A DNA stretch of 39,941 nucleotides. It comes from Bdellovibrionota bacterium FG-1. Its GTDB lineage: Bacteria > Bdellovibrionota > UBA1018. The number at the start of each line of letters is the position of its first letter. The first letter of the stretch is position 1. Positions 13,359 through 33,091 of this stretch are shown here, piece after piece. The translations under genes were made by a program, and so were the position numbers. Under the pieces are notes generated by a model, which was given only the letters and a program-made list of their open reading frames with translations, did no database searches and was not told the DNA's origin. The DNA lies in assembly GCA_051382295.1 (NCBI GenBank), contig JBBCAW010000140.1:1-39941 (forward strand), read 5' to 3'.

Positions 13359-13442
13359 ACTGAAATGGAAGGGGCGGTCCAGTGCCAACCATTAGGGCGG
13401 CCGGGGCCGCCACCCTTTCTTGAACTTTATAGGAGGTCTCTT

Positions 13443-13781
13443 ATGTTCGACCCAGTCAGTTTACGATCAACGGCGGTCAGTCGTTGCCTTGAGAAAAAAC
13501 TTTTATTTTTTGGATTCGAGCTACCCGACGTTCTCATCATTTTTATTTTCCTATCGGCGCTCAATCTCGCGTTTGGCCGGACCCATTATCGCGTGGTGTT
13601 GGTGTGGGTCCCGGCGCTTGCGCTTGCCGGGGCGCTACGGGGCGCCAAACGAGGAAAACCCGATGATTTTCTGATTCATTGGGCGCGTTTTCATATCGGT
13701 CCACGGGCTCTCTACGCATTTTATCAACCGACCGTTCGTATCAATACGCGCGGAAAACTGATCTTGGAGGTTAAATTATGA
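13443..13781 (+). CDS. VirB3/TraL-like membrane protein
   Basis: LFFGFELPD, two TMs, KRGKPDDFLIH. SD AGGAGG; ATGA overlap with virB4. Confidence 0.75.
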   Translation: MFDPVSLRSTAVSRCLEKKLLFFGFELPDVLIIFIFLSALNLAFGRTHYRVVLVWVPALALAGALRGAKRGKPDDFLIHWARFHIGPRALYAFYQPTVRINTRGKLILEVKL

Positions 13782-16884: not shown

Positions 16885-16917
16885 ACCGAAGCCCAATTTT
16901 TAGGAACCGAGGAATTC

Positions 16918-18066
16918 ATGCACGATCTTTCGTGGCTATCATCCGAAGCCAAGCAGATCCATGCGCTGTTTGAACAAGTATTCTACGGCCTCACGCTCGT
17001 ACTCCTCCTCATCGGGGTGGTAACTGAGTTCTTCAAAATGCCGCTAGGGGGAATGCCTCAGTTCTCGCAGCTGGTGGGGCGTCTCTTGATAGCAACCCTG
17101 CTGCTCGTAACCTATTCCGAGGTCAGCAACACAATTGCAGATTTTGGGGACGCGGTATCCAATCAAATCGGATCACTCAACAGCATCAAGCTCGTATTGT
17201 CCCGTTACTACGACAAACTTTTCCAGTTTCAGATGTCTTGGACCTCAATCAAAGACTCCATTTTAATGTTGATTTCGTTTGTAACGTTTTTTCTGCTCTA
17301 TATTTCGGTCTACATCGCGGACGCGGCCATCACCTATGCATGGGTATTGCTTTATGTATTTTCACCACTTCTGATCGCGCTCTTCATCTTGCCGGTGACC
17401 AGTGGCGCAACCAAAGCGCTCTACCGGACCCTTTTTGAGGTGATCGCTTGGAAAATCGTCTGGTCAGTTTTGGCGACCTTGCTTTGGAGTTCAGCTCTTT
17501 CGCAAATCAATCAGCCACAGAGCAAAATCAACTTTATCACGGCGGTATCCCTCAATCTGATCTTGGCAGGCTCCCTTTTGCTGACGCCACTTGTGGTTAA
17601 CGCACTGGCCGGCTCGGGACTGGCGAGCCTGGCTGCCCAAACCGCAGGCATCGCCGCCGGGGCTGCTGCGTTCAACCCTGGTCAACTGATGGCTCAGATG
17701 AGCAAAAGACCGCCGAATCGTGGGCCTGGCGGTTCCCCTCTGGGTGGTGGCGGCCCTTCACCGGCAACTCAGTTTGGATCGGGGTTTCAAGAAAAGTATG
17801 GCGAACGAAGAAATGCGCCACCCCAGGCGAGGCCGACTCCAACGCCGATGTCCAAGTCGGTTCCTAAGTCCGTTCCTAAGTCCGTTCCTAAATCAGTGGC
17901 CCCGGTAAATCAGGAGAAACAACGGGCGGCGTCCGTGACATTTAAGGCCGCGACGGCAAAATACACCCCTCCTGCCAACCGTTCTCAGTACAAAAAACAG
18001 CCCGTTCAACGGGAGTTATTCAACGAGTCCCGGAAGCCTGATGGCTCAAAGTCTAAAGGAGATTGA
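16918..18066 (+). CDS. VirB6/TrbL-like polytopic membrane protein
   Basis: Five to six TMs, SPLLIALFILP motif, low-complexity cytoplasmic tail. Confidence 0.8.
   Translation: MHDLSWLSSEAKQIHALFEQVFYGLTLVLLLIGVVTEFFKMPLGGMPQFSQLVGRLLIATLLLVTYSEVSNTIADFGDAVSNQIGSLNSIKLVLSRYYDKLFQFQMSWTSIKDSILMLISFVTFFLLYISVYIADAAITYAWVLLYVFSPLLIALFILPVTSGATKALYRTLFEVIAWKIVWSVLATLLWSSALSQINQPQSKINFITAVSLNLILAGSLLLTPLVVNALAGSGLASLAAQTAGIAAGAAAFNPGQLMAQMSKRPPNRGPGGSPLGGGGPSPATQFGSGFQEKYGERRNAPPQARPTPTPMSKSVPKSVPKSVPKSVAPVNQEKQRAASVTFKAATAKYTPPANRSQYKKQPVQRELFNESRKPDGSKSKGD
17854..17901 (+). repeat. 12-bp tandem repeat encoding (KSVP)3-KSVA
   Basis: AAGTCGGTTCCT AAGTCCGTTCCT AAGTCCGTTCCT AAATCAGTGGCC. Confidence 0.9.
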
Positions 18067-18071
18067 TATTT

Positions 18072-18629
18072 ATGCGTTTTACCGTGGCTTGGGCTCATGT
18101 CATTTCTGAAAATCTGGCGTTGAAGATTGCTCTGGGTTGTCTTTCGCTGGTTCTCGTTGGCCTCTCTATCACTGTGGTTTCACTTTCCACACGAAAACCG
18201 CTCTTAATTGAACGGGCTTGTTTCTCGCGTGCGATTGCCATCGCTAGCGGTGAACGGTCCCCTTCCGAAATCGAAGTTTTTGTGCGGGAAGCGGTTGCCA
18301 TGCGCTTTGATTCGATGGCCCAGGTTAAACCTGGCTTCCTGTCGGCGGACGAAGAAAGGTACCGTGGCCAGGAGCAATTGGACCTCAAAAAGCATGACCT
18401 TTCAGAGCGCATATTGGTCAACGCGGTGGAGATTCATGGCGAAAAGATCACGGTGGATTCTGATCGCCTGTTTAGCGTGGGGGCCGTGCGCTCGGCGCTT
18501 CCATTCCCGTTGACCCTAACCCTTGGGTCTGTCGGCCGCAGCGAAGGAAATCCTTACGGGCTCATTCTTCTCCAATCGGCGGCCCAAGTGCCGCCGCCGA
18601 ATCAACCTCAGGGAGGTGGTGGCAAATGA
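18072..18629 (+). CDS. VirB8/TraE-like bitopic protein
   Basis: N-terminal TM; C-terminal RSEGNPYGL is the VirB8-type NPxG motif. Confidence 0.75.
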   Translation: MRFTVAWAHVISENLALKIALGCLSLVLVGLSITVVSLSTRKPLLIERACFSRAIAIASGERSPSEIEVFVREAVAMRFDSMAQVKPGFLSADEERYRGQEQLDLKKHDLSERILVNAVEIHGEKITVDSDRLFSVGAVRSALPFPLTLTLGSVGRSEGNPYGLILLQSAAQVPPPNQPQGGGGK

Positions 18630-19078
18630 GATCCCCTCAAGACGTGGATTTGAATTTTTGGGCTATGTTTGTGTTCACCGCAGCATTAGTTGCGTTTCTC
18701 GCCGGAAGGGTTCAGGCTCGCGTCGCCTCTCAAAGTCAGCCGGCCGCTGTTGATGATCATTGTGTGGTGCGGCTGGATAATCGAAGTGTGGCCTATGTCG
18801 CGATTGCATCGGACGGGACCGTGCTCGAATTTCCGACCAAACCCACGAAGGTGATTTTGGGTCGTAAAGCGTCTTTCGGAATCGAGTACGTCGAATCAGA
18901 CTTGGCGATCTCGCCGTTTTCGTTATCATCGCGGTCTCACCTTTTCGTCTATCTGGAGGGGCGACGATTCACGTTTGACCTTTCGACCATCGCAAGTGGC
19001 GGCTGCTCTGTCATTGCCGTGCGCGATTCAAAAGACAATCAAGTTTCCGTGGACGGATTTTTCCGTCCCAAGAACTGA
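18626..19078 (+). CDS. Short VirB9/TraK-like periplasmic protein
   Basis: GTVLEFP...VILG...LAISP...SHLFVY...RFTFDL pattern, located between virB8 and virB10. Confidence 0.65.
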   Translation: MRSPQDVDLNFWAMFVFTAALVAFLAGRVQARVASQSQPAAVDDHCVVRLDNRSVAYVAIASDGTVLEFPTKPTKVILGRKASFGIEYVESDLAISPFSLSSRSHLFVYLEGRRFTFDLSTIASGGCSVIAVRDSKDNQVSVDGFFRPKN

Positions 19079-19096
19079 GTTCCAAGGGGTTTCACC

Positions 19097-19993
19097 ATGA
19101 ATGTTGATCCAGTCGTTGAGATCACGACCGAACCTGGGTTAAATCGGCAGTTTGGGAGACATTGGCGTTCTTACCAGAACTCCCCCTATGGAATATCCAA
19201 CTCATTGGCGATGGCTTCTGGTGTGGCGTTGGTGGTCACCGTCAGCGTCATCGTTTTCACTGGAAATCCCAAGAAAAGTCAGTCTGATCAAACCAGTAAA
19301 TTTCTTGGGATCGAAGTCCCTCGCGGACAGTCCCAAGCAGAAATGCTTATCATCCCACGGTTTGACCCCATGACTTTTCCGAGCCCCACGGCCAAAGCAA
19401 ACGCTGGCCCACGATCAGCAGTGCGTCTTTTCGGGCCTCAGGTCGTCAGTCGTCCAAGAAATGTACAGATTCCTCCTGGATCAATGGTGGAGGCTATTTT
19501 GATTTCAGGTGCGTCCGACGGACCAGTCAAGGCCGAACTCAAAGGGCCATTGATTGTTGGAGGTGAAACACTGCTTGAGGTCGGCACTGTACTCATGGGC
19601 ACCGGCCAGTCCGGCGACGATCGGCTCATGATCCATTTTCGGAAGGCGATCTTTCGAGACGGTACGATGGCAAAGATTGAGGCGCAGGCCGCAGATCACT
19701 CTGACAAAATTCCGGGAATCAGGGGTTCACATGTTGGATACCGGGCACTCAAACTCGCCGCCGGGGTGGGGCTCAGCTTTGCGGGCGGTTTGTCGCAAGG
19801 GCTTCAAGATACGCAGGGTCAAGCGGGCGCTGTGGTCGCACCGCCGTCGATGAAGAACGCACTCTTAAATGGTGCCGCCCACGCGACCCTAGAAGAGGGC
19901 CAAGAGATGATGAACGACTACAGGAACGAGAAGCCCGTTATAACTGTGGAAGCCGGGACACTCGTGACCGTGCTTTTTGTCGATAACGGCTGA
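19097..19993 (+). CDS. VirB10/TrbI-family protein
   Basis: TM and Pro-rich linker, IPPGSMVEAIL, GTVLMG, GIRG, PVITVEAGTLVTVLF. Confidence 0.9.
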   Translation: MNVDPVVEITTEPGLNRQFGRHWRSYQNSPYGISNSLAMASGVALVVTVSVIVFTGNPKKSQSDQTSKFLGIEVPRGQSQAEMLIIPRFDPMTFPSPTAKANAGPRSAVRLFGPQVVSRPRNVQIPPGSMVEAILISGASDGPVKAELKGPLIVGGETLLEVGTVLMGTGQSGDDRLMIHFRKAIFRDGTMAKIEAQAADHSDKIPGIRGSHVGYRALKLAAGVGLSFAGGLSQGLQDTQGQAGAVVAPPSMKNALLNGAAHATLEEGQEMMNDYRNEKPVITVEAGTLVTVLFVDNG

Positions 19994-20058
19994 GTGACAG
20001 CATGATTCCTAAGTCCCCGCGCCCGTTTAGGGCCCCCCTTCAGTTGAGGAGTTAATTT

Positions 20059-21621
20059 ATGGGTGATACTTCTGCGGTCCATAAAGAAGAGTGGGATTTA
20101 TCCGGCCTGGTCCGTTTGGGCATTTTCATCAAAGAATTTGGAATCGAATTTTGGAGGGGGGTTACGACAAAAACGCTGCCTTGGCCCATTTGTTGCGGCA
20201 TCGGTGTCGTTTTCTCGACAATCTTCACTCTTCGATATGACGCCTATGCATGGCGGTTTATCGGTATGGCCAAAGGTTACCCTTTTCATCCCTTATTGTA
20301 TTGGACCTATGTAACGATCTACGTCAGCAGCGGCTTCTGGATTTGGACGATAGGCCGAGTGTTCTCTCGTCGCGAACTGGTGAAAACGCTTTCCAGCGCT
20401 TTTCATAATGCGGGCCTCCTGACACGCACAGGACGGTTCCCCGGTTTTGTCTCCGACGAAAAACTCGATACCCACATGCGAAAGCTCGTGGTAACAGCCG
20501 TGGGGCTCCCAGAATCCGAGTTCAAAAAGGCCAGGCCCAGCTTAGAAGCTGCTTTACAAGTCTTTATCGATCAGATCAAGTCGCGGGTCGAGCGAGGAAC
20601 TGTCGAGCTGCTCTATGCCTACATGCCGCTTCTCGATCATATTGATTATGACCCTCTCATGAAAGTCGCCCCGTTGACATTCATGGTGGGAATGACACGA
20701 TCCAAGCCACTGCTCATCTCTTTACGAGAGGTGCCCCATATTCTGGCCGGTGGCTACACGAATTCAGGAAAGTCAGCATTTGTACGCCAATTGCTCATGA
20801 CGCTCACGTTAAATAATCCCGACGTCGAATTCACCCTCATTGATCTAAAGAGTGGGCTTGAACTGGGGATCTTTGACGGTATGCCAAACGTCAGACTCTA
20901 CATCACGCCCGCCGAGGCAATTAAAGCACTTCAGTACGTAGAGGCGCAGCTTGAAAAACGGATGGGGCTATTAAGAGCCAATCGGGCGAATGACTTTGAT
21001 GCTTTCTATCGAATCCCCGAGGAGAAACGGAAATATACGGCCGAGTGGCCTAAGGGGAAAGTCCTTGTCCGTCACGTCCTGACTATCGACGAAGCAGCTG
21101 AGCTTTTTATGGCCAGCGGAACCCTTGCAGCAAAGGATGCTCAAGTTGCGCGCCGTCTCACCGCAAAGATCGCAGCCCTAGGGCGTGCCGTTGGCATTCA
21201 TCTCATTATCGCGACCCAACGTCCTGATCGCAATGCCGTGGACCCGCTCATTAAGAGCAATCTCCAAGGACGACTCTGTTTTCAAATGTCGGACAATGCT
21301 TCGAGCATGACGATTCTGGATTCGGTTCGGGCCGCTGATCCTCCACCCACAAAAGGTCGGGCTATTTGGCGATCAGGTTTTGATCTCATCGAAGTCCAAG
21401 TACCTTGGCTCGATCGCGACGCGATGGCACTGCTTCTTGAACCCTTTAAGAAAAAGGGTGAGGCAGTTGGGTCAACTGCCAACGGGACAGACCAAAGCCA
21501 CACTCAAGTGAGTGCAGCATCCAAAATTGACGATGGCGTTGAAAAATCGACCGGCATTGTGACGACCCATAAAAAATTGGAAGTAGCATTGCTTTCTGAA
21601 GAAAACGGAGGCACTGAATGA
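20059..21621 (+). CDS. FtsK/SpoIIIE-family DNA translocase (TcpA-like coupling protein)
   Basis: N-terminal TMs, PHILAGGYTNSGKS, IDLKSGLE, IDEAAEL, GRAVGIHLIIATQRP. Confidence 0.93.
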   Translation: MGDTSAVHKEEWDLSGLVRLGIFIKEFGIEFWRGVTTKTLPWPICCGIGVVFSTIFTLRYDAYAWRFIGMAKGYPFHPLLYWTYVTIYVSSGFWIWTIGRVFSRRELVKTLSSAFHNAGLLTRTGRFPGFVSDEKLDTHMRKLVVTAVGLPESEFKKARPSLEAALQVFIDQIKSRVERGTVELLYAYMPLLDHIDYDPLMKVAPLTFMVGMTRSKPLLISLREVPHILAGGYTNSGKSAFVRQLLMTLTLNNPDVEFTLIDLKSGLELGIFDGMPNVRLYITPAEAIKALQYVEAQLEKRMGLLRANRANDFDAFYRIPEEKRKYTAEWPKGKVLVRHVLTIDEAAELFMASGTLAAKDAQVARRLTAKIAALGRAVGIHLIIATQRPDRNAVDPLIKSNLQGRLCFQMSDNASSMTILDSVRAADPPPTKGRAIWRSGFDLIEVQVPWLDRDAMALLLEPFKKKGEAVGSTANGTDQSHTQVSAASKIDDGVEKSTGIVTTHKKLEVALLSEENGGTE

Positions 21622-22592
21622 GCGAACCGATCTATCTGTCCAAAGAAATCGGCGTTCCTTTGCTTAAATTTATTTGGAAATGGAAAGTTGTATCAACAGC
21701 CGGAATCTCGCTTCGATTCCTATCTCATATGAAGTTTCCTACCGCGCCCTATGACTATTTACGAAAACTCAGGGAGGCGCATTATATCGTCTCAACGTCG
21801 GCCGGAGAACAAGGACGGGGGTATCTTTGGACTTTGGACCGTGCGGGATTTGAGGCCATTCGGCCAAGTCTGCCGGAACTCAGAGAGGTGGGTTACAAGG
21901 CCGAGTATCGTGAACACGATTGGCTCGTGAGTGCGTTTCACCTGGGTGAATGGCTTGTCCAAAGCCCCGCAGGGGTTCAGACATTTTCAGAGCAATTGCT
22001 CAGACGCCTTGAACCGGAGCATTATCCCGCCTGGGTTCCCAAAGATCGAGGCCACCGCCCGGACGGCTATTGGCACCGGATGGACAAAGGTACGATTCGC
22101 ACAATCGCCCTTGAGCTGGAACTCAATCGCAAGAAAGCCACTGCATATCAAGGTGTCGGAAGTTTTTACGGAGAGTCAGCCCAAGTCGGACGCGTGCTCT
22201 GGGTTGTGCCAGCTCTTTCTGATGCTGTGTTTATCCAGAACAATTTGAACAAGGGTCCTGGCAGTCGGTCTGACATTCATAGCTTCGTGATGCTTGACTC
22301 GTTTTTAAAAGACGGCTGGTCTGGATTGATTACTCAGGGGCCAGGAAAGGGTCTTTCAGTTGAGAGCTTTCTCTCGAAGGCACTCGGAGTTTCGCCAGAA
22401 GCTTCCGCGACGCCCACACGAATCCGTGGCGTCACGATGGCGCTTTTGAATACTCGATTGAAACGAATCCAGTCAGCACCTTACGGGCTCGGGCGCGAAG
22501 GGCAGTTTTCCAGACAGACTACCGCTAACGCTATAGTCTCCCTCGCTCCGCATGAAACCCGTCTCAACGTCAAACCGGAGGTTTCACGATGA
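21618..22592 (+). CDS. Replication-relaxation (MOBC-like, PD-(D/E)xK) putative relaxase
   Basis: N-terminal wHTH-like region, EHD, HRPDG...IALELEL..K...Y, VLWV. ATGA-coupled to the FtsK gene. Confidence 0.72.
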   Translation: MSEPIYLSKEIGVPLLKFIWKWKVVSTAGISLRFLSHMKFPTAPYDYLRKLREAHYIVSTSAGEQGRGYLWTLDRAGFEAIRPSLPELREVGYKAEYREHDWLVSAFHLGEWLVQSPAGVQTFSEQLLRRLEPEHYPAWVPKDRGHRPDGYWHRMDKGTIRTIALELELNRKKATAYQGVGSFYGESAQVGRVLWVVPALSDAVFIQNNLNKGPGSRSDIHSFVMLDSFLKDGWSGLITQGPGKGLSVESFLSKALGVSPEASATPTRIRGVTMALLNTRLKRIQSAPYGLGREGQFSRQTTANAIVSLAPHETRLNVKPEVSR

Positions 22593-22978
22593 TCCGTATC
22601 TCATGCTCTCGGGCTATTGCCCTCGTACTCCTTACGTCGTCTTGTGCAACCGCACCTCAAAGTATTCTTCTCGGTGCAAGTAGCGGCGCTGTAGTCGGTG
22701 GTGCTGCTGGTCTTGCAATCCGCCACAATGCAACCGGAACTGCGATTGGCGCAGCAACCGGCGCACTCGCGGGCGGCTTGATTGGCTGGCTTTTACATCA
22801 CGATAAACCATCGGGCCAGTCATCCAATCCCCAAGACGCGGAGAAGTATCCATTTCTCACCCGTCCCGAAGTTCGGACCCTTTGGGTACCGGACTCGGTC
22901 GAGGGCAATCGCTACATCGAAAGACATCGCGTGTTCATCATCGATAAAAATAGCTCATGGAGTAAAGACAATGACTGA
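22589..22978 (+). CDS. TraV-like lipoprotein with glycine zipper
   Basis: Lipobox LTSS-C, GAxxGA repeats, PEVRTLWVPD...HRVFII...W tail resembling TraV. Confidence 0.7.
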   Translation: MIRISCSRAIALVLLTSSCATAPQSILLGASSGAVVGGAAGLAIRHNATGTAIGAATGALAGGLIGWLLHHDKPSGQSSNPQDAEKYPFLTRPEVRTLWVPDSVEGNRYIERHRVFIIDKNSSWSKDND

Positions 22979-23459
22979 AACCTTCACTAAACCCGCCGCT
23001 GAACTCATCAAAGACACCAAGCCGAGAAATACGTTTCCAGATCGCCTTACAGTCATTCCGTCCAATCTCGAAAAGATCGGGCGGCTGGTTAACCAGCTCA
23101 CTTCGAGTTGTCCAGGCGTCGAGGTGAGTCGGAAGGACATTTTGAATTGGATCGTTGAAAAGATTCCCGAGGAGCTGAGTGCCGCCGATATCAAGGATCT
23201 TTCAGGCCGATTTTATGACGAGGAGCGATTTCTGAAGTTTGCATTAGAGGAGGTTCGGGCAGCCAAGGCGCGAGGAGAAAAGCGAACCCTTGAGGACATA
23301 TTGCAGAATATGCCCCAGGCAGGGACGGCTGTCACGCGACGCCCGCGCAAGCCGAAAATTGAAGCCCTCATCAAAAGTGAGCAGGACTTATCCGAACTTT
23401 CGCCGAAGGGTAGCGTTAAGGCCGTTTCAGGAGGTTCAGGAAATGCGCCGGCTCAATAA
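22971..23459 (+). CDS. Hypothetical protein, possibly an RHH-like relaxosome accessory factor
   Basis: ATG 22971 follows GGAG. DRLTV strand plus two helices (VSRKDILNWIVE). Confidence 0.65.
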   Translation: MTETFTKPAAELIKDTKPRNTFPDRLTVIPSNLEKIGRLVNQLTSSCPGVEVSRKDILNWIVEKIPEELSAADIKDLSGRFYDEERFLKFALEEVRAAKARGEKRTLEDILQNMPQAGTAVTRRPRKPKIEALIKSEQDLSELSPKGSVKAVSGGSGNAPAQ

Positions 23460-23826
23460 TGCGAACCATGCGATAGGATTTGAGCGGGAGCAGGTGTTGA
23501 CGGTCGCCAGTTACAAGGTACCGAGCGCGACCGGCAAGCGCGGTTTCGAGCACGAGGTTGTCCGGGTGATTATGGGGAATTACCTTGATCGTCCCCTTGG
23601 CCTCGTAAAGGTCCGCCACTTGAAGAATCCGATGGATGAGTCTCTTGGTGTTGGTGCGGCCAAAGCCAAGTTTCTCAATCAAGTTCCGCTCGATCTCTTC
23701 CAAAATTTGTTGCGAGGCGACGACTTCAAATCGCTGGTTCAGCGCTGCCGTGACAATGGCGGCTGGTGGTCCGCCAAAAAGGACGCCGCTAATCCAGACA
23801 TTGGTGTCAACACAGGTTTTAAGCAT
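23416..23826 (-). CDS. PIN-domain toxin (VapC-like)
   Basis: VDTNVWISG...ILEE...PDNLVLETA...LVTGDRQHLL. Confidence 0.93.
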   Translation of the reverse strand: MLKTCVDTNVWISGVLFGGPPAAIVTAALNQRFEVVASQQILEEIERNLIEKLGFGRTNTKRLIHRILQVADLYEAKGTIKVIPHNHPDNLVLETALAGRARYLVTGDRQHLLPLKSYRMVRIIEPAHFLNLLKRP

Positions 23827-23836
23827 GACTTGAGGA

Positions 23837-24106
23837 TTACCGGCGACTCGCCCGTTTAGGTTCCCGCTTCATCTCTAGCCGGGTTTCTTGAGCGAGGCGA
23901 ATCACATCTTCCGGGTTAAGTTTGCGCTTTTTGACAACTTTACGGCCCTCAGCTCTAACCAGTGCCAAGTCGCGGCTAGTCATGTACTGGCGAAACGCTT
24001 CGCGGAGCACTTCGGAAACAGTCCTGCGCTCGTTTTTGGCGATCTTTAAAACTTCCTTTTCCATGTCAGGCGGCAGGGACAGTGAAATGACTTTAGCTGT
24101 TCTCAT
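23837..24106 (-). CDS. CopG/RHH antitoxin
   Basis: VISLSLPP...AKNERRTVSEVLREAFRQY. ATG 24106 follows GGAGAG. Confidence 0.9.
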   Translation of the reverse strand: MRTAKVISLSLPPDMEKEVLKIAKNERRTVSEVLREAFRQYMTSRDLALVRAEGRKVVKKRKLNPEDVIRLAQETRLEMKREPKRASRR

Positions 24107-24130
24107 AATAAAAACTCTCCGTTCATAACA

Positions 24131-24160
24131 ATCATAACAGTAATAACCATTTTCTGTCAA
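24131..24160 (-). promoter_or_regulatory. Sigma-70 promoter of the RHH-PIN operon with overlapping direct repeats
   Basis: TTGACA-18-TATGAT with extended TG. TCATAACA/TCATAACA/TAATAAC repeats at 24123-24147 are the likely operator. Confidence 0.7.
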
Positions 24161-24243
24161 GTATCACAGTCCCACGGCAACTACCCTAAGAAGAGCTTCC
24201 GCCGCCAACCTCTGGCGCTTTTCCAGAAATGGGGATATAGAGG

Positions 24244-24477
24244 ATGAACCAAGCACGAATTGCTTTAACAACGGATGCTGTGCTCTTTGATAAATTAAAG
24301 TTTTTAACCTCGAAAGAGGCCGCGTTTTTGCTGCGGACGTCGGAAGGCCAGATTCGTAATCTGGTCTGGAGCGGAAGGCTTAGGGCCCTTCGCTACGGAA
24401 ACCGACTCCGCTTTCTCAGGTCTGACGTGGAAAAAGTCCTGAAGCCTACCTTTGAAGGAGGCAGTTATGGGAGTTAA
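24244..24477 (+). CDS. xis: Excisionase-family HTH protein
   Basis: FLTSKEAAFLLRTSEGQIRNLVWSGRLRALRYGNRLRFLRSDV; overlaps the integrase start. Confidence 0.88.
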   Translation: MNQARIALTTDAVLFDKLKFLTSKEAAFLLRTSEGQIRNLVWSGRLRALRYGNRLRFLRSDVEKVLKPTFEGGSYGS

Positions 24478-25621
24478 GTCTTACGTTGGAAAAAATGGTG
24501 AAACGCTTTGGCAGGTATTTGCATATGCGCGCGGACAAATGAATTCTGGGATCAAGGTCGAAAAGACCAAGACCGGATTCGCCAATGAGCGAGAAGCTCA
24601 GCGCATGTTCAAAGAACTCCAAAGGGAGTGCGAACGCGATGTCCTCAACAGAGAATCGCAAGGCTCGTCGTGGGGCGCAGTACTGGAGGCATGGTCAAAG
24701 AGCTTGCAAAACGAAAAGCTCGAAGATGCTACCCGGGTCGATTATATCGCCGCCGCTTACAACTATACTGCGAATTGGATCAAGCGACCGGCCGCCGACA
24801 TCACGTCGGTGGATGTTCGGGAACTTTTCACCCAACTCAAGGCACAGGGCCGGACGTATGAATTCATCAAGCGGATGAAAAACATGCTCAACCGGATTTT
24901 CCTGTTTGGTATGGAGCGGAGGCTCATCAAAGGTGCGGGGGATCGAACCCCGGTCTTTGGTGTTCAGATCGGTAGACCCGAGGAGAAGAAACCGGAGATC
25001 CTGACAATCGTGGAGATCCGGCACCTGCTCCAAGCAGCTCGGCAGTTGAACAGTGAGTGGTATTTTCACTGGTCTCTGGCCCTGCTCACCGGCATGCGAA
25101 ACGGCGAACTTTATGCGCTTCTCTGGACTGATGTGGATTTCGAAAGTAACACCATTTTGGTCAATAAAACCTACGATAGCCGCTTCAATGTCATCAAAGA
25201 CAAAACCAAGGGCGGCTATTGGCGAGTGGTTCCAATTTCAAAACAGTTACGAACGACCCTACTTGAGTTGAAGTCTCAAGCTAACGGACGCCCAACTGTT
25301 CTCCCCCGGCCACGCGAGTGGCAACGAGGGAGCCAGGCACAAGAACTGCGGAAGTTCTGCCTCGGAATCGGAATCCCCTCGGTACGGTTTCATACGTTGC
25401 GAGCTTGCTTCGCAACACAGTTGATCAGAAGTGGGGTGCCACCCATCCAGATTCAAAAGGTCTGTGGGTGGAAGGATCTCAAAACCATGCAACGCTATAT
25501 TCGTATGGCGGGGATTGAGATCGATGGGGCCACCGAAGCGCTGGACCTGCTGCCTGAATCGGCCATCATGGCCAGGGCAGCGGACCAGCTCGATGGCCCC
25601 GAAACCGCATCAGTCGAATAG
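24467..25621 (+). CDS. int: Tyrosine recombinase/integrase
   Basis: TGMRNGE (R), TK (K), FHTLR (HxxR), CGW (W), TMQRY (Y). SD AAGGAGG. Confidence 0.96.
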   Translation: MGVKSYVGKNGETLWQVFAYARGQMNSGIKVEKTKTGFANEREAQRMFKELQRECERDVLNRESQGSSWGAVLEAWSKSLQNEKLEDATRVDYIAAAYNYTANWIKRPAADITSVDVRELFTQLKAQGRTYEFIKRMKNMLNRIFLFGMERRLIKGAGDRTPVFGVQIGRPEEKKPEILTIVEIRHLLQAARQLNSEWYFHWSLALLTGMRNGELYALLWTDVDFESNTILVNKTYDSRFNVIKDKTKGGYWRVVPISKQLRTTLLELKSQANGRPTVLPRPREWQRGSQAQELRKFCLGIGIPSVRFHTLRACFATQLIRSGVPPIQIQKVCGWKDLKTMQRYIRMAGIEIDGATEALDLLPESAIMARAADQLDGPETASVE

Positions 25622-25767
25622 CAAGTGATGCTGCGACAAGTTAATTTGAGCTTGTCGGAGTTTTGTCTGAGTGTAGAGGTGAAACCTTTGATTTACGGTG
25701 GGTTAAGTCGATTTGCGACGTACCGACCAGATGCTAAACTCCCCAGCTCCCGAACCGATAAGACAAG

Positions 25768-26040
25768 GTGAACGTTCGACGCCCTTTTTATGCAATCGCA
25801 CTCCTCCTCGTCCTTGGGACGGCGATGGCTCGCGCGGAAATCGACGCCCCGCTGGTGCACCTCGAAAAAGTCGCCACCGATTTTGCAAAAACCGTGGTGA
25901 GCAAAGTCAAAACTGCGCGGGTGCTCGTGGCCGACTACGAACTTCTCAAAAGAGATTTTCCCGAACTCCGCCGTTATGGCTCTAACGAAACCGCCAAGAT
26001 CGATGAGTGGCTCTTGACCCACGCAGGCTACATTGCCACT
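25768..26040 (+). pseudogene. 5' fragment of an exported protein gene, possibly SelO/MchC-like, apparently truncated
   Basis: Signal peptide then ARVLVADYELLKRDFPEL...IDEWLL..AGYI. Beyond ~26040 the frame runs through tRNA-like and transposase-leader DNA. Confidence 0.45.
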
Positions 26041-26041
26041 T

Positions 26042-26066
26042 TGGTGGACCTTTGTGGGATCGAACC
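26042..26066 (-). other. Orphan tRNA/tmRNA 3'-end fragment (att-like junction)
   Basis: Minus strand GGTTCGATCCCACAAAGGTCCACCA gives T-loop, 3' T-stem, acceptor strand and CCA. No 5' half found. Confidence 0.65.
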
Positions 26067-26218
26067 CCTGTCATCTTTATTGCCATGGGGGTCGCCAATG
26101 AGTGTAGTTCTTCACGTAATCAAAAAAATCCATATCATTTCAAATGGATACGCTCCGTTCGATCTTACGGTAAAAACGACCCCCGGTTTGACGAAATTTC
26201 GGCAGAGTAACTGAAGCC

Positions 26219-27574
26219 ATGAAACCAAATGGCAAACGTAGAGCGTCATGCAAACGCGGCAATTATCGTGAACATGACCCGTGGGTAAAAGACTTGGTCG
26301 CCCTGAGCGGAAAATGGAACCTTTTTCCAGATTCAGAGATCCCGCGTACTACCGCTCAATCCTGGATTAAAAAGGGATACCAGGGGCTCGACGCGAAGCT
26401 TCAATCCTTTGCTGAGCATTACTTGGATATGGATCGACAGCTTGCGCAATTGAAAAATAATGAGTTCCTTTTCAATGCCCGGATCAAGCTCATCACCGAA
26501 GCACAAGGGGCTTTTGGTGTTGAGATGAACACTAAAAAAATCCACTCTAAGAAAATCCGCGCAAAGATCCTTTCGTTGATCGAGCAGGCCATCCGAGACA
26601 AGGTTCCGCGGGCCGTTTGCCTATCGACACTGGGGCTCAGCCTATCACGCTATAAACGTTGGCGGCGTGAAGATAAAAGATGCCTGGCTACGCCCACTCG
26701 AACCTGCATGAAGCTCAGTGCATCAGCCCTGACACCAAAAGAAATATATACGATGCGCTACTATGTTACCTCAAAAAATTTCGCCCATTTTCCGATCAAG
26801 TCTCTTTGTTACTTTGCGAAGAGGCAAAAAAAATTATCATGCGCCTATTCGACCTGGTTGAAATATGTCAATGCATTGAATTGGAGACGGCCAAATCAGA
26901 AGCCAAAAAAAATCAGGCGAAAGAGAGGTGTTCGCGCCGCTCGTGCAAACGAAATCTGGCACCTGGATGTGAGTGTCATTGTATTGCCTGATCAAAGCAA
27001 AGTTTATATTCAGGCGGTTTTGGATAATTATTCACGATATGTCCTGGCGTGGAATGTCAGCAGAGAAAATAAAGGTATCAAAACGACTAAGCTGCTCATC
27101 AAGGCACTTCGGCAAAGTTATGCAGTACGTGGATTGAAAGTTCCTAATACTTACGTCGACGGCGGTACTGAAAATAACAATGAAGACGTGGAGACCCTCG
27201 TTCATTTGAAGTTGATTCAAAAAACAATTGCCCAAGTAGAGGTCGTTTTTTCAAACTCGATGATTGAACGCTTATTCCTCTCGCTAAAACACAATCACCT
27301 TTATCACCGGCCTCTACGCAATGTTAAAGGGGTTAAGCGGGAGGTCGACTTTTACCTTTCGGAGCATAACAACCGCATGCCGCACAGTGCGTTCACCGGT
27401 GAGACACCAAAAGAACGTTACCTCAATATGTGGGGTGATACCCATCGGCTCCAACTTAAAATTCATCATGAAGCGGCGAGGAAGCTTAGACTCACAGACA
27501 ACAAGCTCATTTTTTGCCAGGAATGTGGGCCAACTCCGGCCGACCGCAGATCAGATCAAGATCTTGTCCAATAA
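26219..27574 (+). CDS. DDE (rve) integrase/transposase, IS3/IS481-like
   Basis: NEIWHLD...VLDNYSRYVLAW...VDGGTEN...NSMIERLFLSLK...HNNRMPHSAF.GETP. Confidence 0.93.
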   Translation: MKPNGKRRASCKRGNYREHDPWVKDLVALSGKWNLFPDSEIPRTTAQSWIKKGYQGLDAKLQSFAEHYLDMDRQLAQLKNNEFLFNARIKLITEAQGAFGVEMNTKKIHSKKIRAKILSLIEQAIRDKVPRAVCLSTLGLSLSRYKRWRREDKRCLATPTRTCMKLSASALTPKEIYTMRYYVTSKNFAHFPIKSLCYFAKRQKKLSCAYSTWLKYVNALNWRRPNQKPKKIRRKRGVRAARANEIWHLDVSVIVLPDQSKVYIQAVLDNYSRYVLAWNVSRENKGIKTTKLLIKALRQSYAVRGLKVPNTYVDGGTENNNEDVETLVHLKLIQKTIAQVEVVFSNSMIERLFLSLKHNHLYHRPLRNVKGVKREVDFYLSEHNNRMPHSAFTGETPKERYLNMWGDTHRLQLKIHHEAARKLRLTDNKLIFCQECGPTPADRRSDQDLVQ

Positions 27575-27737
27575 GTCCTCACAAAAAAACCCGATAATCC
27601 AAGTTGAAAACCTTCGACAGCCGCTTGGCTTCGATTTTTCTCACCGTGCGGCGTCCCGTTTCGATTTGAGAGAGATTTGATTGAGTCAGGACCGCAGGTT
27701 CGCGCGAAACTCGATCCACAAGGGCAGATTCACCGAC

Positions 27738-28058
27738 TTAAGAAGCCCTCTTTTCATCTTCCCTGGCTTCGATTGAAAGACGAAGCCCCATAGCCGCCAA
27801 AAGAGACCGCAGGGTGGTGAGCTTCGGGTTTCCTGAGGTCGATAGCGCTTTGTAAAGGCTCTCGCGCCCTAGTTGTGCTCTGTCAGCAATGTCGCCCATT
27901 CCATGAGCTTTGGCGACGTCCCGAAGCGCAATGAGGAATAGCTCCTCGGCATCTTCGGTGTCGTCGTCTAAGTGGGCATTGAGATAGGCTGCGGCTTCTT
28001 CCGGTTTTTTTAGATCCTCGACGAGGTCCTTTTCATAATTTCGAGTTCGCTTTGGCAT
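27738..28058 (-). CDS. Addiction-module antidote protein (HTH, HI1420-like)
   Basis: AAAYLNA...ALRDVAKAHGM..IA...LGRESLYKALS..GNPKLTTL. SD GAGGTG. Confidence 0.92.
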   Translation of the reverse strand: MPKRTRNYEKDLVEDLKKPEEAAAYLNAHLDDDTEDAEELFLIALRDVAKAHGMGDIADRAQLGRESLYKALSTSGNPKLTTLRSLLAAMGLRLSIEAREDEKRAS

Positions 28059-28072
28059 ATCGATCACCTCTT

Positions 28073-28411
28073 TTAATTCGACTCCTCAGTCAAATAGTCT
28101 TTCCAGTACTCTTGTGCCTTTGTTATGTCGCGAGTTTGAGTGCCCTTGTCTCCGCCACAAAGCAAAACCACAATTCGATCACCTTCGTTTCCATAATAGA
28201 CCCGGTACCCAGGCCCAAAATCAATCTTCAGCTCCCAAACTCCCTGTCCCACATGCCGATTGTTTCCAAGATTTCCGATTCGAACTCGGTTGAGTCTTTT
28301 TCGAATAATCGCTCGTGCTTGAAGATCTTTCAGTTCATGAAGCCAATTTAAAAAAGGGCACTCACCGGTTACCGTCTCATATTCGAGTAATTCCTTTGGT
28401 GTCGGCTCCAT
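28073..28411 (-). CDS. RelE/ParE-family toxin (HigB/HI1419-like)
   Basis: GNLG...VGQGVWELKIDFGPGYRVYY...VLLCGGDK.TQ.RDI. Confidence 0.94.
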   Translation of the reverse strand: MEPTPKELLEYETVTGECPFLNWLHELKDLQARAIIRKRLNRVRIGNLGNNRHVGQGVWELKIDFGPGYRVYYGNEGDRIVVLLCGGDKGTQTRDITKAQEYWKDYLTEESN

Positions 28412-28416
28412 AATCA

Positions 28417-28445
28417 ATTGTATCTCCTAGGATACAGATTGTCAA
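28417..28445 (-). promoter_or_regulatory. Sigma-70 promoter and palindromic operator of the toxin-antidote operon
   Basis: TTGACA-17-TACAAT; inverted repeat TGTATC-N6-GATACA at 28419-28436. Confidence 0.82.
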
Positions 28446-28514
28446 ACCCGCTTTTTTCTGTATGAAATAATTGCATTTTTTGTCCTTTCAAACGTTGATG
28501 TTTACTTTTTTGGA

Positions 28515-29660
28515 TCACGCCCGTCGCTCCTCCCACCAAGCCGAAACCGCAAGCCCTCGAATCGCGTTGCCACAACCTCGGAGAGCCGGATAACGAGCCG
28601 CCACGGCCTCGATCCAGCTTTCTCGCTCAGCTTCGCCCCGAAACGCAGCCTCGAAGGCCTGCTCTCGTTCAAGTGCCTGGAGGTCCTCCTGCAATTTTTG
28701 GAGTTCTCCCTGTTGGCGGATCTCTGCCCTGGTTTGTTCGAGTTGCTCTTTTTGTTGCTTTTGCTCAGCCTGAAATTTCACTGACTTAAGCACCTCGGGC
28801 ATCGCTTTGGCTAAATACCCCATCGGAGAATGACAAGGCTCCCCTGAGTGAGGAAGTCCGCTCGTTGATAGAAAATCGAACGCAAGTTCGATTTCCGGAT
28901 CGTGGTAGTCTTGCCTTAATTCTAAAAAGCTTGCCCATTCGCTCTCCCTCTTTCGGACCGGCTTCAGAGATTCAAAATAGGTTTTCAAGTTTTCTGAAAT
29001 TTCCTGAGAGAGAGAGTTCTTGTTTTCTTGTTTTATTATATTTCTTTTTTCTCCCTCATTTTGAGGGACCTGTTGCCTCAAATTGAGGGAGGTGCTACCT
29101 CGTTTTGAGGGAGCTCCCACATCATTCTGAGGTACCTCAAATTGAGGCACCTTATTTTGAGCATCCTCGTTTTGAGGTTCCTTATTTTGAGGTGGCTCAC
29201 CTCGGCCTAGAAGGTTTTGCACCCACCAAATATTGCCGCGCTCAAAATCCACCCGCACCCGTCGAATCATCCCTGCTTCAACTAAGGACGACAGAATGCG
29301 CGAGACCGACGCCGAGGAGACTCCTGTGTTTCGACTCAGGTAACTCACCGATGCTCGAACCTCGCCGTTGCTATTTGGAAAACGCCAGGCCTGGGTATTC
29401 ATCCAAAGAAACACCCTAAAGCCATCTCCCGAGAGCGCCATGACTTGCGGGTTTTGAAGGGCCCCATGGGAGAGCGCAAAATAACCTTGATTGAAAGCTC
29501 CCTCTTTTTGAGGTTCCTTATTTTGAGGTGCCTCATTTTGAGGGAGCTTGGGTTGCGCACATATTGGCGGAGAAAAACCCAAATTTCTCGGAATCCGCAT
29601 CGGTTCGGCAACGTTCATCGCTTTTAAAGCGTCTTTAAGCTCGATTCTTGGCTTACTCAT
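28515..29660 (-). CDS. wHTH replication-initiator-like protein with internal iteron-like repeats
   Basis: YFALSH...LSGDGFRVFLWM...ASVSYLSRNTGVSSASVSRILSSLVEAGMIRR wHTH, PQNE-repeat linker, C-terminal SPMGYL domain. Layout resembles lambda-O/DnaD-type initiators. Confidence 0.7.
   Translation of the reverse strand: MSKPRIELKDALKAMNVAEPMRIPRNLGFSPPICAQPKLPQNEAPQNKEPQKEGAFNQGYFALSHGALQNPQVMALSGDGFRVFLWMNTQAWRFPNSNGEVRASVSYLSRNTGVSSASVSRILSSLVEAGMIRRVRVDFERGNIWWVQNLLGRGEPPQNKEPQNEDAQNKVPQFEVPQNDVGAPSKRGSTSLNLRQQVPQNEGEKRNIIKQENKNSLSQEISENLKTYFESLKPVRKRESEWASFLELRQDYHDPEIELAFDFLSTSGLPHSGEPCHSPMGYLAKAMPEVLKSVKFQAEQKQQKEQLEQTRAEIRQQGELQKLQEDLQALEREQAFEAAFRGEAERESWIEAVAARYPALRGCGNAIRGLAVSAWWEERRA
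29054..29192. repeat. Eight 13-bp palindromic repeats, consensus CCTCAWWWTGAGG
   Basis: Starts 29054, 29076, 29098, 29120 (22-bp period), then 29135, 29150, 29165, 29180 (15-bp period). Confidence 0.93.
29501..29543. repeat. Three more 13-bp palindromic repeats
   Basis: CCTCTTTTTGAGG 29501, CCTTATTTTGAGG 29516, CCTCATTTTGAGG 29531 (15-bp period). Confidence 0.93.
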
Positions 29661-30480
29661 GGGCCACCCCCGCGCTCACCAGTTGAAGCCTGGGAGAGGC
29701 TTCTTGTGCAGGCTTGAGGCGCTCAAGAATCTCTTTGGCCAGACTCAGGTAATCGAGTGCGCCGGAACTCTCGGGGGCATGTTGAAAGATCGTGCGTCCC
29801 AAGGCTGGGGCCTCCCTGAGTCTGACCGAGCGGCGAATTCGAGTTTCAAAAACTTGGCTTCCCAATGACGCAACTAGCTCGTCACGAATTTCTTCAGACA
29901 TTCGGGTTTGATCAAAAAGTGTCAGTAAAACCCCCAAAATCTTGAGTTCTGGGTTGTACCCTTGTTGAATTTCCTCGAGTTCAGCAAGGAGCTTTTTGAA
30001 TCCCGCCAGTCCGTAGAAGCTCGAGTCCACCGGAACCAAAACCCAATCGGAGGCATTGAAAGCCGAATTCATAAGTGGGCCAAATCCTGGCGCGTTATCA
30101 ATCAGGATAATGTCATAGATTGGCTTCAGGCGCTTGATTCGCTGGGCTAGGCGCAGCTCGCTGTTGGTCATCCCTGGCATTTCTCTTTCCAATGCGGCCA
30201 AAAGGGGCGTGGCGGGGATCAGATCCATTCCTGAACCCCGGTATATTGCGGCGGATTCGGGCAAAGTTTTGTTTCGCAAAAGATCCGCGATCGAAGTGTG
30301 GATTTGATCGAGTTGGATGCCCACCCCTTGGGTAGCATTTCCTTGTGGGTCTAAATCGATCATCAGGACCCGTAATCCCTGCGCGGCAAGGGCTTGAGCA
30401 AGATTGACGGTGGTCGTCGTTTTTCCGACGCCTCCTTTTTGGTTGGTGATCGCGATGACTGCGCTCTGAGGTAAATTCAT
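29653..30480 (-). CDS. parA: ParA/Soj-family ATPase
   Basis: NQKGGVGKTTT, IDLDPQGNAT, YDIILIDNAP, IRRSVRLREAP. ATG 30480 follows GGAGAG. Confidence 0.96.
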   Translation of the reverse strand: MNLPQSAVIAITNQKGGVGKTTTTVNLAQALAAQGLRVLMIDLDPQGNATQGVGIQLDQIHTSIADLLRNKTLPESAAIYRGSGMDLIPATPLLAALEREMPGMTNSELRLAQRIKRLKPIYDIILIDNAPGFGPLMNSAFNASDWVLVPVDSSFYGLAGFKKLLAELEEIQQGYNPELKILGVLLTLFDQTRMSEEIRDELVASLGSQVFETRIRRSVRLREAPALGRTIFQHAPESSGALDYLSLAKEILERLKPAQEASPRLQLVSAGVAHE

Positions 30481-30534
30481 TTTTCTCTCCATTCGTGGAT
30501 TGACATGACCGGCACATCTCTTTAAGAATGGAGA

Positions 30535-30663
30535 GGTGCCCGCCAGGAATCGCAATGCGACTCCGGTGGTGGTTTGAGAATCAGCGGCCTATCCGCCAAG
30601 AAAAGACGCTGACTCGATTGGAAAAATTTAAGACGCCCGGAGATGACCCTCCGGGCTTTTTTT
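30535..30663 (+). ncRNA. Putative ~125-nt counter-transcribed antisense RNA to the parA-rep leader
   Basis: TTGACA at 30500-30505 with a weak -10 (AAGAAT 30524-30529), internal hairpins at 30545-30563 and 30581-30612, and a strong terminator. No gene on this strand needs that terminator. Confidence 0.55.
30635..30663 (+). terminator. Intrinsic terminator
   Basis: GCCCGGAG-ATGACC-CTCCGGGC-TTTTTTT. Confidence 0.88.
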
Positions 30664-30968
30664 ATTTATGGGGGAGGCATTGACTTCCTCCTCTTGTTGG
30701 TCGTTAATTCAGGCCTGGAATTGGATTGGCTTGCCGCCGTGGGCTCGCAGGATTGCGTAGCATTAGCGTAGCAAGGGATTCCGGACGTATTCAGAAAGAT
30801 AAGGAATTTTCTAGCGAGTTCTTGCGAGATTTGGAGAAGGTCTGAATGAGTAAAACCGGTACTTTCATCATGAAATTCAGCGGTTGCCCCTCTAATGGGG
30901 GAAGCACTACGGATGCGAAGGTCAGATAAAAAGGTATCAGGTTACTTCTTGATGCCCACCGCGTTAAG

Positions 30969-31871
30969 ATGACCAATCTTACGATGATAATCACTCAGCA
31001 AATGACGCAACCCGAACCCCTCATAGGCCGCGAAGACGAGCTACTCCATGTGCGAGCCTGCCTTCGCGCCCGCCGCAATGTCCTGCTCGAGGGTCCCGTT
31101 GGAGTGGGCAAAACCCAGCTCGCTTTGGCCGTTACGAAGGAAATGAACGTCCCCATTTTTCGAGTGGATGGGGATAGTCGATACTCCGAGCAAAAACTCG
31201 CCGGTTGGTTTGATCCGCCCGCGGTCATTCAAAAAGGCTTCACCGCCGCTGCTTTTATGGAAGGTCCTCTCGTCGAAGCGATGAGAAAAGGCGGCGTGCT
31301 ATTTATCAATGAGCTCAATCGCCTGCCCGAAGGTGTTCAGAACATTTTGCTGCCTGCTATCGATGAGCGGATGATTATCATCCCGCGACTCGGCGAAATT
31401 CGGGCCGCAGATGGCTTCTTAGTCATTGCCACTCAAAATCCCAAAGAATTTGTCGCGACCTCACATCTCAGTGAGGCCATCTTGGATCGCTTTGAGTTGG
31501 TGACGTTGGATTACCAATCCGAAGCCGACGAAATTAAAATCGTGTCGCAACAACTCAGTCGCGAGACTCTGGCGGCTGAGCTAACAAGGCTGGTCGTCGC
31601 ATCCGTCCACCTGGTCCGTGCCACACGGGTTGATCCCAGGATCAGACGAGGCGCTTCCATTCGCGCAGCTATCGCGATAGCCAAAATTGCGCGCGTGTTG
31701 ATGGAAGACGGACTTTCTTTCGATCCAGCCTTTGCCAAAGCCGCGCTATTGGCTCTTCCGACCCGAATCGAAATGGAGCGCGAAAACAGCGAATCCTCCG
31801 CCCATGCTGAAATAACTGCACTTCTGAGCCAAATGGCCCAAGAGGCCCTAAAAAAAAAGCCCCTCACCTAA
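30969..31871 (+). CDS. MoxR/CoxD-like AAA+ ATPase (frame-0 product)
   Basis: LEGPVGVGKT, LFINELNR, IATQNP, LSEAILDRF, GASIR. Confidence 0.93.
   Translation: MTNLTMIITQQMTQPEPLIGREDELLHVRACLRARRNVLLEGPVGVGKTQLALAVTKEMNVPIFRVDGDSRYSEQKLAGWFDPPAVIQKGFTAAAFMEGPLVEAMRKGGVLFINELNRLPEGVQNILLPAIDERMIIIPRLGEIRAADGFLVIATQNPKEFVATSHLSEAILDRFELVTLDYQSEADEIKIVSQQLSRETLAAELTRLVVASVHLVRATRVDPRIRRGASIRAAIAIAKIARVLMEDGLSFDPAFAKAALLALPTRIEMERENSESSAHAEITALLSQMAQEALKKKPLT
31850..31859 (+). other. A9G slippery site (A_AAA_AAG), candidate -1 frameshift or transcriptional slippage
   Basis: CTA AAA AAA AAG CCC CTC ACC TAA. The -1 frame is open from here through 32815. Confidence 0.7.
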
Positions 31872-32815
31872 CAACGCGCCCACCTCCTACTGTTGAACTT
31901 CCGCCTGAAGCCTTTGGACATTCCGGTGCCGGATTTGAGGATGACGAGGAAGTAGATGCCCTGGAGCTGGCCTCTGCGAGTGCCTGGGATGTGGCCACAC
32001 GATATCACGAATTCAGGAAACTCCCGGTTTTCAAAAAGCAGCGCAGACAAATCCGACACCTCGCCGCCCATGAAATCATTCTACGAGCTCAATCTATTCT
32101 AGGCTCAGTCGTGCATCCCATGGAACAGCGACTAGCCCCCCTCAGTGAAGTTCCCCAGGATGCGCAGAGTTTAGATTTGGATATTGACGAGACCATTGAA
32201 AACGCCCCTCTCAGCGTGACGGGTTCTCTACCTCTCACTGAGCAAGACATCTGGATGAGCTACCAAACGCATCGTAAGCAATCGGTGATTCTCACGGTGG
32301 ACACGAGCCTGTCCATGACTGGCGAAAAACTGGCTTTAACTGCGGTGGCCTTAGCAGTGGTATTGCTCGAGTTCCCCAATGACCCTCTGGGCATCATAGC
32401 CTTCGAAAATGAAGCAAAAGTGATCAAACGGCCCGAAGAGCGCCTTTCGCTTCAAAGTCTGATCGAGAGACTCTTAGATGTTCCCGCACAAGGATATACC
32501 CATCTTGAAGATGGGTTGAAAGCCGCGCTCAAGCAACTTCAAAGCATGATGGGCGGACGAACTGGCCACCCCCCCTCCACAATATTGCTGACCGACGGAA
32601 AATACACAGGTGGACGGGATCCGGCCTATCTGGCCCCCCGATTTCCCCATCTCGTTGTCCTCAAAATGGGGACAGAACACTCTAGTCTCGACCTCTGCCG
32701 CGAACTCGCTCAAAAGGGGCACGGCGCACTGCGTGAGGTTGGAAATTTGGAGGCACTTCCCCTGGTCATGTACGGCGTGGTCAAAGAGCTTTTGCGCGGC
32801 CGTGGGTTGTCGTGA
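31859..32815 (+). CDS. Pro/acidic linker plus von Willebrand factor A domain (-1 frame continuation; ORF track starts it at 31991)
   Basis: LDIDETIE, MIDAS DTSLS, GYT, LLTDG. Upstream in-frame linker APHLTTRPPPTVELPPEAFGHSGAGFEDDEEVDALE. Confidence 0.85.
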   Translation, partial: APHLTTRPPPTVELPPEAFGHSGAGFEDDEEVDALELASASAWDVATRYHEFRKLPVFKKQRRQIRHLAAHEIILRAQSILGSVVHPMEQRLAPLSEVPQDAQSLDLDIDETIENAPLSVTGSLPLTEQDIWMSYQTHRKQSVILTVDTSLSMTGEKLALTAVALAVVLLEFPNDPLGIIAFENEAKVIKRPEERLSLQSLIERLLDVPAQGYTHLEDGLKAALKQLQSMMGGRTGHPPSTILLTDGKYTGGRDPAYLAPRFPHLVVLKMGTEHSSLDLCRELAQKGHGALREVGNLEALPLVMYGVVKELLRGRGLS

Positions 32816-32881: not shown

Positions 32882-33091
32882 GTGACGATGCGCGATAATT
32901 ACAAGCTTCAAGGTGCAAAAACTCGGATGGATTTCGAGGTCGAGAAAGACGTCGCCGAAACCTTCAGTGCAATGGAAAAATATACAGGTCTCACCGTTTC
33001 AGAATTGGCCAACACTGCGATGAAACGATTCATTGTTCATCATATGGATTTTTTACCACCTAAAAACAGTGCCCCCATTCATCAGGGATAA
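32882..33091 (+). CDS. Small RHH-like DNA-binding protein
   Basis: RMDFEVEKDVAETFSAMEKYTGLTVSELANTAMKRFI strand-helix-helix pattern; SD GGGGA. Confidence 0.7.
   Translation: MTMRDNYKLQGAKTRMDFEVEKDVAETFSAMEKYTGLTVSELANTAMKRFIVHHMDFLPPKNSAPIHQG

Follow-up and report, generated by a model that had tools for sequence, protein, structure and literature searches.

Two adjacent reading frames in the window (the entire 39,941-nucleotide stretch of DNA analysed), which encode a MoxR-type AAA+ ATPase and a vWA protein, very probably constitute one gene with programmed recoding, as judged from comparison with their relatives. The short product is the 300-residue ATPase, encoded at 30969–31871 on the + strand (with alternative ATG codons at 30984 and 31002). 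A −1 shift near the end of this frame is predicted to give a second product of 297+318=615 residues, in agreement with the sizes of about 300 and 615 residues proposed in an earlier note on this DNA.

The ATPase frame ends with CTA AAA AAA AAG CCC CTC ACC TAA, the stop codon lying at 31869–31871. The putative slip site A9G (31850–31859, + strand) consists of nine A's at 31850–31858 followed by G at 31859, and contains two in-frame heptamers, A_AAA_AAA (31850–31856) and A_AAA_AAG (31853–31859). The SD-like sequence AGAGG (31841–31845, + strand; −5.8 kcal/mol) ends 7 nt ahead of A_AAA_AAG; in Escherichia coli dnaX the SD-to-slip-site spacing is roughly 10 nt. Bounded by stops at 31808 and 32813, the −1 frame is open for 334 codons (31811–32815, + strand) and encodes a linker, a helical segment, a beta-hairpin extension and the vWA domain. 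In translation the linker (31859–31990, + strand) is Pro-rich and then acidic, and it carries a conserved PPE motif. Both the A9G and the AGAGG described in the earlier note were found in the sequence, the −1 frame is free of stops from the A-run into the vWA frame, and the linker reads as that note gave it.

The 4.44-Mb genome contains 71 runs of nine or more A's on its two strands, and only the one at the window junction connects a long upstream frame with a long shifted frame. Outside the junction, the two frames of 79 orthologous loci, 143,447 nt in total, contain a single such run. Because it is the sole frame-joining run of the 71 and because runs of this length are so rare elsewhere in the orthologous frames, the junction run exceeds chance expectation.

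We then compared the junction among relatives. The vWA half was present in 34 of 41 related genomes and, in a phylum-wide set of 301 genomes, in 98, of which about 89 matched closely. The lineage of the named records is Bdellovibrionota, and more copies were found in Thermoplasmatota and in one Myxococcota record. A first set of 109 loci contained 83 distinct ones, 79 with both genes and four at contig ends that lacked the ATPase. Another 44 distinct split loci came from a second set of 74, the remainder of which comprised 28 duplicates, one fused locus (L111) and one without a vWA match. Together these gave 123 distinct split loci, the window included, with identities to the window proteins of 47–71% for the ATPase and 26–68% for the vWA half.

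The vWA frame lay at −1 in 121 of the 123 split loci and at +1 in two, and 120 carried A9–A11 at the junction (nine A's in 62, ten in 54, eleven in 4, and six, seven and eight in one each), although these counts overstate independence because the loci are kin. Both +1 cases are explained by a single base in their sequences: the run of L049 is A9 and its −1 frame is open, a second indel lying further downstream, and the run of L177 is A8. In each of the 121 −1 loci the run is flanked by the upstream stop of the −1 frame on one side and by the stop of the ATPase on the other. Since these two stops are at most 25 nt apart in 30 loci, the shift event is pinned to the run. The ATPase stop follows the run within 4 nt in 78 of the 123 loci and within 11 nt in 107. 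All 121 loci have an open −1 frame downstream of the junction, as the selection required. An equally long upstream stretch of this frame is open in 12 loci, and for the remaining two frames the counts are 0 and 2. The comparison strongly supports the earlier proposal of one gene giving a short ATPase and an ATPase-linker-vWA protein through a conserved −1 event, and no orthologues organized as separate genes without an A-run were seen among the nucleotide loci examined.

A homopolymer assembly error, with a simple A10 fusion as the true gene, is exceedingly improbable. Contigs of one listed DNA run (0.09 share) stop short of covering the junction and fused relatives are common, but the same −1 break recurs in 121 loci from separate assemblies, with A9 and A10 alike. 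In addition, an identical 300-residue ATPase, with the same end, is encoded on a 12,633-bp Logan contig from a second assembly, for which the same reads may have been used.

The Thermoplasmatota loci L102–L107 and L109 have GAA AAA AAA ACG in common (A9, −1), a candidate archaeal recoding site. They lie beside a beta-CASP nuclease and a gene of the isocitrate/isopropylmalate dehydrogenase family, and in L103 and L104 another MoxR-like ATPase immediately precedes them. When 201 Thermoplasmatota genomes were surveyed at E 1e-15, the only match was the query genome itself.

Alternatively, the two frames could be separate overlapping genes, the vWA protein starting at its own codon through translational coupling and the A-run merely encoding a basic KKK tail. 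The annotated vWA start, GTG at 31991–31993 (+ strand), is the Val codon of a conserved W-D-V/I-A motif. Among 69 loci this position held GTG in just 25, TTG in one and other Val, Ile or Leu codons in 43, and the GTG is likely not a start. The window has no ATG, GTG or TTG in the −1 frame between 31811 and 31990, and 12 of 78 loci, the window among them, have none ahead of the conserved W motif. Some ATG, GTG or TTG does follow the run in 65 of the 78, which would make internal initiation possible in places, and the ATPase C-terminus is KK-x in most loci. However, these lysines are encoded almost solely by A's in one unbroken run, 121 of 123 loci have a −1 offset, and 70 of 86 loci are without a start bearing an SD of −5 kcal/mol or stronger. 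A PPE or APE linker motif was present in 66 of the 86 loci with a placeable W motif (35 loci were omitted because theirs was not placeable), and in 29 it lies upstream of any start. Separate genes are accordingly a very unlikely description of this locus.

Naturally fused relatives were also found. With one of these as the query we retrieved 80 metagenome loci, of which 2 were duplicates, 8 were cut short and 70 were complete. The complete loci comprised 61 fused in frame and 9 split, a ratio that is biased because a fused query favours fused matches. All nine split loci were −1 at A7–A10, and 44 of the 61 fused loci had no A5 run at the junction. Both domains were present in 63 of the best 150 cluster representatives, and 17 of the 37 ATPase-only matches with a complete C-terminal match had KK in their last 16 residues. 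A quick tree built from 92 selected ATPase domains shows 8 switches between split and fused, at least five of them forced by well-supported branches.

Some fusions retain traces of the run. L111 (2749–4722, − strand) is an in-frame fusion with an A8 run and L187 (near 1246) one with an A9 run, each followed by early stops in both shifted frames, and P0123 is fused with KKK at the junction. All three may be one-base errors or sites of reversed polarity, which would be long by default and short by slip. Together with L177 (A8, +1) they are the few loci one base off that would fit phase variation, in which DNA replication slippage toggles cells between ON (fused) and OFF (split). This reading is highly improbable: the 124 genome-derived loci are −1 in 121, +1 in 2 and fused in 1 with no mixture of states, and the vWA half, at 26–68% identity, has kept its MIDAS intact across the split lineages.

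As to how the −1 frame is reached, we lean slightly towards recoding led by RNA-polymerase slippage. RNA polymerase would stutter on the A9 run and add one A in part of the transcripts; unslipped messages would give the 300-residue ATPase by ordinary translation, and slipped messages the 615-residue ATPase-linker-vWA fusion. A ribosomal −1 shift on A_AAA_AAG probably contributes in some lineages. Slippage is favoured over a dnaX-type ribosomal shift because the length of the run is kept while its phase and 3′ base vary: all three phases occur across loci, and the run is followed by G in 91 of the 123, by C in 22 and by T in 10. The in-frame A_AAA_AAG, which the earlier note compared with E. 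coli dnaX, is present in the window and in 76 of 123 loci overall, but it is absent from 45 of the 120 runs of nine or more A's and therefore appears dispensable. The comparison did not support AGAGG, the SD-like sequence of the same note, as a stimulator. A strong SD-like window (−5 kcal/mol or lower) was found upstream in 28% of 72 bacterial loci versus 26% of 576 control windows, with mean SD energies of −3.7 versus −3.1. No conserved downstream hairpin was found in the 72 loci (mean folding z of −0.26 versus −0.37), and in the window itself the sequence downstream of the run folds weakly (−8 to −9 kcal/mol over 70 nt).

Slippage by bacterial RNA polymerase is efficient at 9 A/T (Atkins 2016, PMC5009743), and runs of at least this length, as in Thermus dnaX, occur in 120 of 123 loci. 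The genome encodes both tRNA-Lys(CUU) and tRNA-Lys(UUU), and the presence of two Lys tRNAs has been linked to slippage in Thermus dnaX (Atkins 2016, PMC5009743). For chelatase cassettes with A7, A9 and A11, shifting of 10, 40 and 63% was measured (Antonov 2013, PMC3711429).

There is an appreciable, if minority, chance that the ribosome leads instead and makes the same two products by programmed −1 frameshifting on A_AAA_AAG or A_AAA_AAA with no conserved stimulator. The 76 loci with an in-frame A_AAA_AAG are consistent with this, as are the 78 loci whose run ends at most 4 nt from the stop and a tested chelatase cassette with an identical run-codon-stop layout (Antonov 2013 supplement, PMC3711429). 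The chlD event is moreover termed translational by Kuznetsov 2022 (PMC9227772). In L035 (near 5785) A_AAA_AAG (A6G) stands alone at the junction and the frame is still −1, which suggests a ribosomal route at least there; L035 is a candidate for a purely ribosomal version. Both L035 and the 76 A_AAA_AAG loci oppose a slippage-only reading. On the other hand, 6–7 A's would suffice for the ribosome, yet 120 of 123 loci keep nine or more, and neither an SD nor a stem is conserved. The tRNA-Lys(CUU) in the genome also argues against a ribosomal lead, and pure sliding of the ribosome, robust from A11, is weak at A9 and A10 (Koutmou 2015, PMC4363877). An in-frame A_AAA_AAA lies within each A9 run as well, so that the two routes are inseparable by sequence alone; both would lead to an identical 615-residue product.

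The MoxR-type assignment of the ATPase made earlier was borne out. Pfam AAA_5 (5.8e-22) and AAA_3 both scored above cut-off, and a Walker A motif, GPVGVGKT (31092–31115, + strand), is the same in 105 of 123 loci. The Walker B motif LFINE (31299–31313, + strand) departs from the canonical hhhhDE, with N replacing D and the Glu kept; NE is found in 118 of 123 loci, as part of NELNR, and is a trait of the family. The alignment consensus of more distant fused relatives has EE at this pair. Given the D-to-N change, the ATPase activity of the NE protein is putative. The vWA half matches Pfam VWA_2 (1.2e-11) and has the MIDAS motif DxSxS (DTSLS; 32300–32314, + strand), invariant in two alignments (A1 and A6), with the MIDAS Thr and Asp also present. 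Its AlphaFold model (pLDDT 94.5) includes the hairpin extension, and in a fold search the NorD VWA domain and the Rea1 MIDAS domain ranked first over about 270 columns, with an rmsd of 8–12 Å that is high over the extension.

The best NCBIfam match of the ATPase was GvpN (82 bits versus a cut-off of 266.8), and its best bacterial PDB sequence matches were NorQ and CbbQ, midasin scoring higher through its repeated domains. A model of a fused relative consists of a NorQ-like ATPase and a vWA domain joined by a disordered stretch, and its fold matched NorQ and CbbQ with target TM scores of 0.80–0.85. The family is NorQ/CbbQ/GvpN-like MoxR AAA+/VWA. GvpN, NorQ and CbbQ proper were rejected on the sub-threshold GvpN score and because the recurrent neighbours include no gvp, nor or cbb clusters. 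A ChlD/ChlI-type ATPase was likewise rejected (TIGR02031, 32.7 of 499.55 bits; TIGR02442, 30.5 and 35 of 779.45). The earlier label 'CoxD-type' was not clearly borne out, the best matches being NorQ, CbbQ and GvpN. VWA_CoxE did not match the window protein and matched 46 of 56 fused relatives at E 0.001, and no cox or molybdoenzyme genes were found among the recurrent neighbours.

This gene design, an ATPase and an ATPase-vWA protein made from one gene by a −1 event on poly-A, is known from frameshifted chlD (Antonov 2013, PMC3711429; Kuznetsov 2022, PMC9227772; an archaeal review, PMC8211752). As here, the chlD genes described in the first two of these sources have an AAA+ domain, a Pro/acidic linker and a vWA domain split by −1 on a poly-A run, with a stop immediately behind the run; in other species they are fused in frame, and they occur in both bacteria and archaea. 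In contrast to chlD, the present genes belong to a different AAA+ family, and ChlD/Co-chelatase profiles score 30–35 bits against cut-offs of 500–779. ChlH/CobN (PF02514) was not found in this genome (97.7% complete; the control matched in 5 of 14), though Kuznetsov 2022 (PMC9227772) also describes some chlD genomes without it. The downstream hairpin that the same source gives as usual for chlD is not conserved here.

A second precedent is dnaX, in which one AAA+ gene gives short and long subunits of one ring, as we propose here. Thermus thermophilus dnaX uses transcriptional slippage on nine A's, a run also found here, and E. coli dnaX uses a ribosomal −1 shift on A_AAA_AAG, which most of the present loci share. 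Neither the SD nor the stem-loop of E. coli dnaX is conserved in the present loci. Both dnaX genes make the long form by default, whereas here it needs the shift; the two-ORF dnaX cluster of Antonov 2013 (PMC3711429) likewise needs a shift for its long form. A search of the open literature found no paper on recoding in the MoxR family, although Supplementary file 1 of Antonov 2013, which lay outside the search, may list such a cluster. The trick has so far been described for chelatase genes rather than for a MoxR-type family, and the present gene is a deeply conserved recoding candidate.

The closest known machines suggest what the two products might do. Among bacterial proteins, both halves match NorQ/NorD and CbbQ/CbbO best in sequence and fold, and share with them an intact MIDAS and a hairpin extension ahead of the vWA core. 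In contrast to the present gene, these machines are encoded by two separate genes, their adaptor has a large N-terminal domain and their Walker B is DE. CbbQO is a 6:1 complex, CbbQ6O1 (PMC5437159), and in NorQ/NorD the NorD N-terminal domain is anchored on one NorQ while the vWA finger turns in the pore (PMC13036017). By analogy, the short and long products described here would co-assemble into a remodelling ring of this kind, in which most subunits would be short and one or few would bear a vWA/MIDAS adaptor tethered by the linker. The minority fusion product would, we infer, supply the single adaptor on a covalent tether to an ATPase subunit.

A possible client is suggested by the gene neighbourhood. 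In relatives the gene sits behind kdd-kamD-kamE, with kamE at most 400 nt upstream in 77 of the 111 loci with enough flank, and 23 of 24 kamD-positive genomes have the ATPase/vWA pair. Lysine 5,6-aminomutase undergoes suicide inactivation (PMC3958899), so a reactivase role for the pair is plausible where this enzyme occurs. KamB/KamC is a reactivase of lysine 5,6-aminomutase (NCBIfam NF052386), and relatives of the pair lie directly behind kamE; by our searches the pair belongs to an unrelated fold family. No KamB/KamC paper was found in the literature search. KamB was found in none of 41 genomes, a result that says nothing firm because no control genome matched either. Reactivation of lysine 5,6-aminomutase cannot be the pair's sole role, because kamD was unmatched in 11 of 34 pair-bearing genomes, including this one (in which kamDE was not found), and in five of five archaeal and Myxococcota genomes with the gene, a search in which no control genome matched. 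Methylmalonyl-CoA mutase was rejected as a common client since its distribution departs from that of the pair (34 of 41 genomes): genome G005 has the pair without the mutase and G039 the mutase without the pair.

In the window, a mobile island (13077–30555) occupies the place of the leuDH-kdd-kamD-kamE genes of relatives. It contains transfer genes, integrase-like and transposase-like ORFs, toxin-antitoxin-like pairs, an HTH replication-like ORF and ParA, several of these being labelled by eye. A strong terminator-like hairpin with a T-run (30635–30665, + strand) lies about 300 nt upstream of the ATPase. A dispersed repeat of about 40 bp (30928–30968) ends right at the ATPase start codon; the genome has 14 copies including this one, five of them on contig C62, and similar pieces occur in contigs of run X1. 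Downstream of the vWA frame a small ORF of 67 residues (32888–33091, + strand; tblastn match at 32888) belongs to a cluster found in 58 of 86 loci and has a paralogue on contig C112. It had no family match, nor did a homologue match in NCBIfam; our guess is that it resembles a ribbon-helix-helix regulator.

A more far-reaching picture is possible but doubtful as a whole. An unnamed MoxR branch with an NE Walker B would tune a poly-A slip to produce a ring of about five short ATPases and one subunit with a covalently leashed vWA adaptor, the leash replacing the N-terminal anchor that NorD uses to twist its client. Bacteria and archaea would together have gained or lost this switch at least five times, and the ring of most Bdellovibrionota would reactivate B12-dependent lysine 5,6-aminomutase in the place of KamB/KamC.

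If the recoding reading is true, a further cellular gene family would need recoding, across a bacterial phylum and in some archaea, and its genes are annotated everywhere as two, with a false vWA start. The chlD trick would then extend to MoxR chaperones. Fused, −1 split and one-base variants adjoin on the tree; with this natural series one could ask why AAA+/vWA machines should require their subunits in unequal numbers. A short cassette would allow a direct test between slippage and ribosomal shifting, the archaeal A9 site included.
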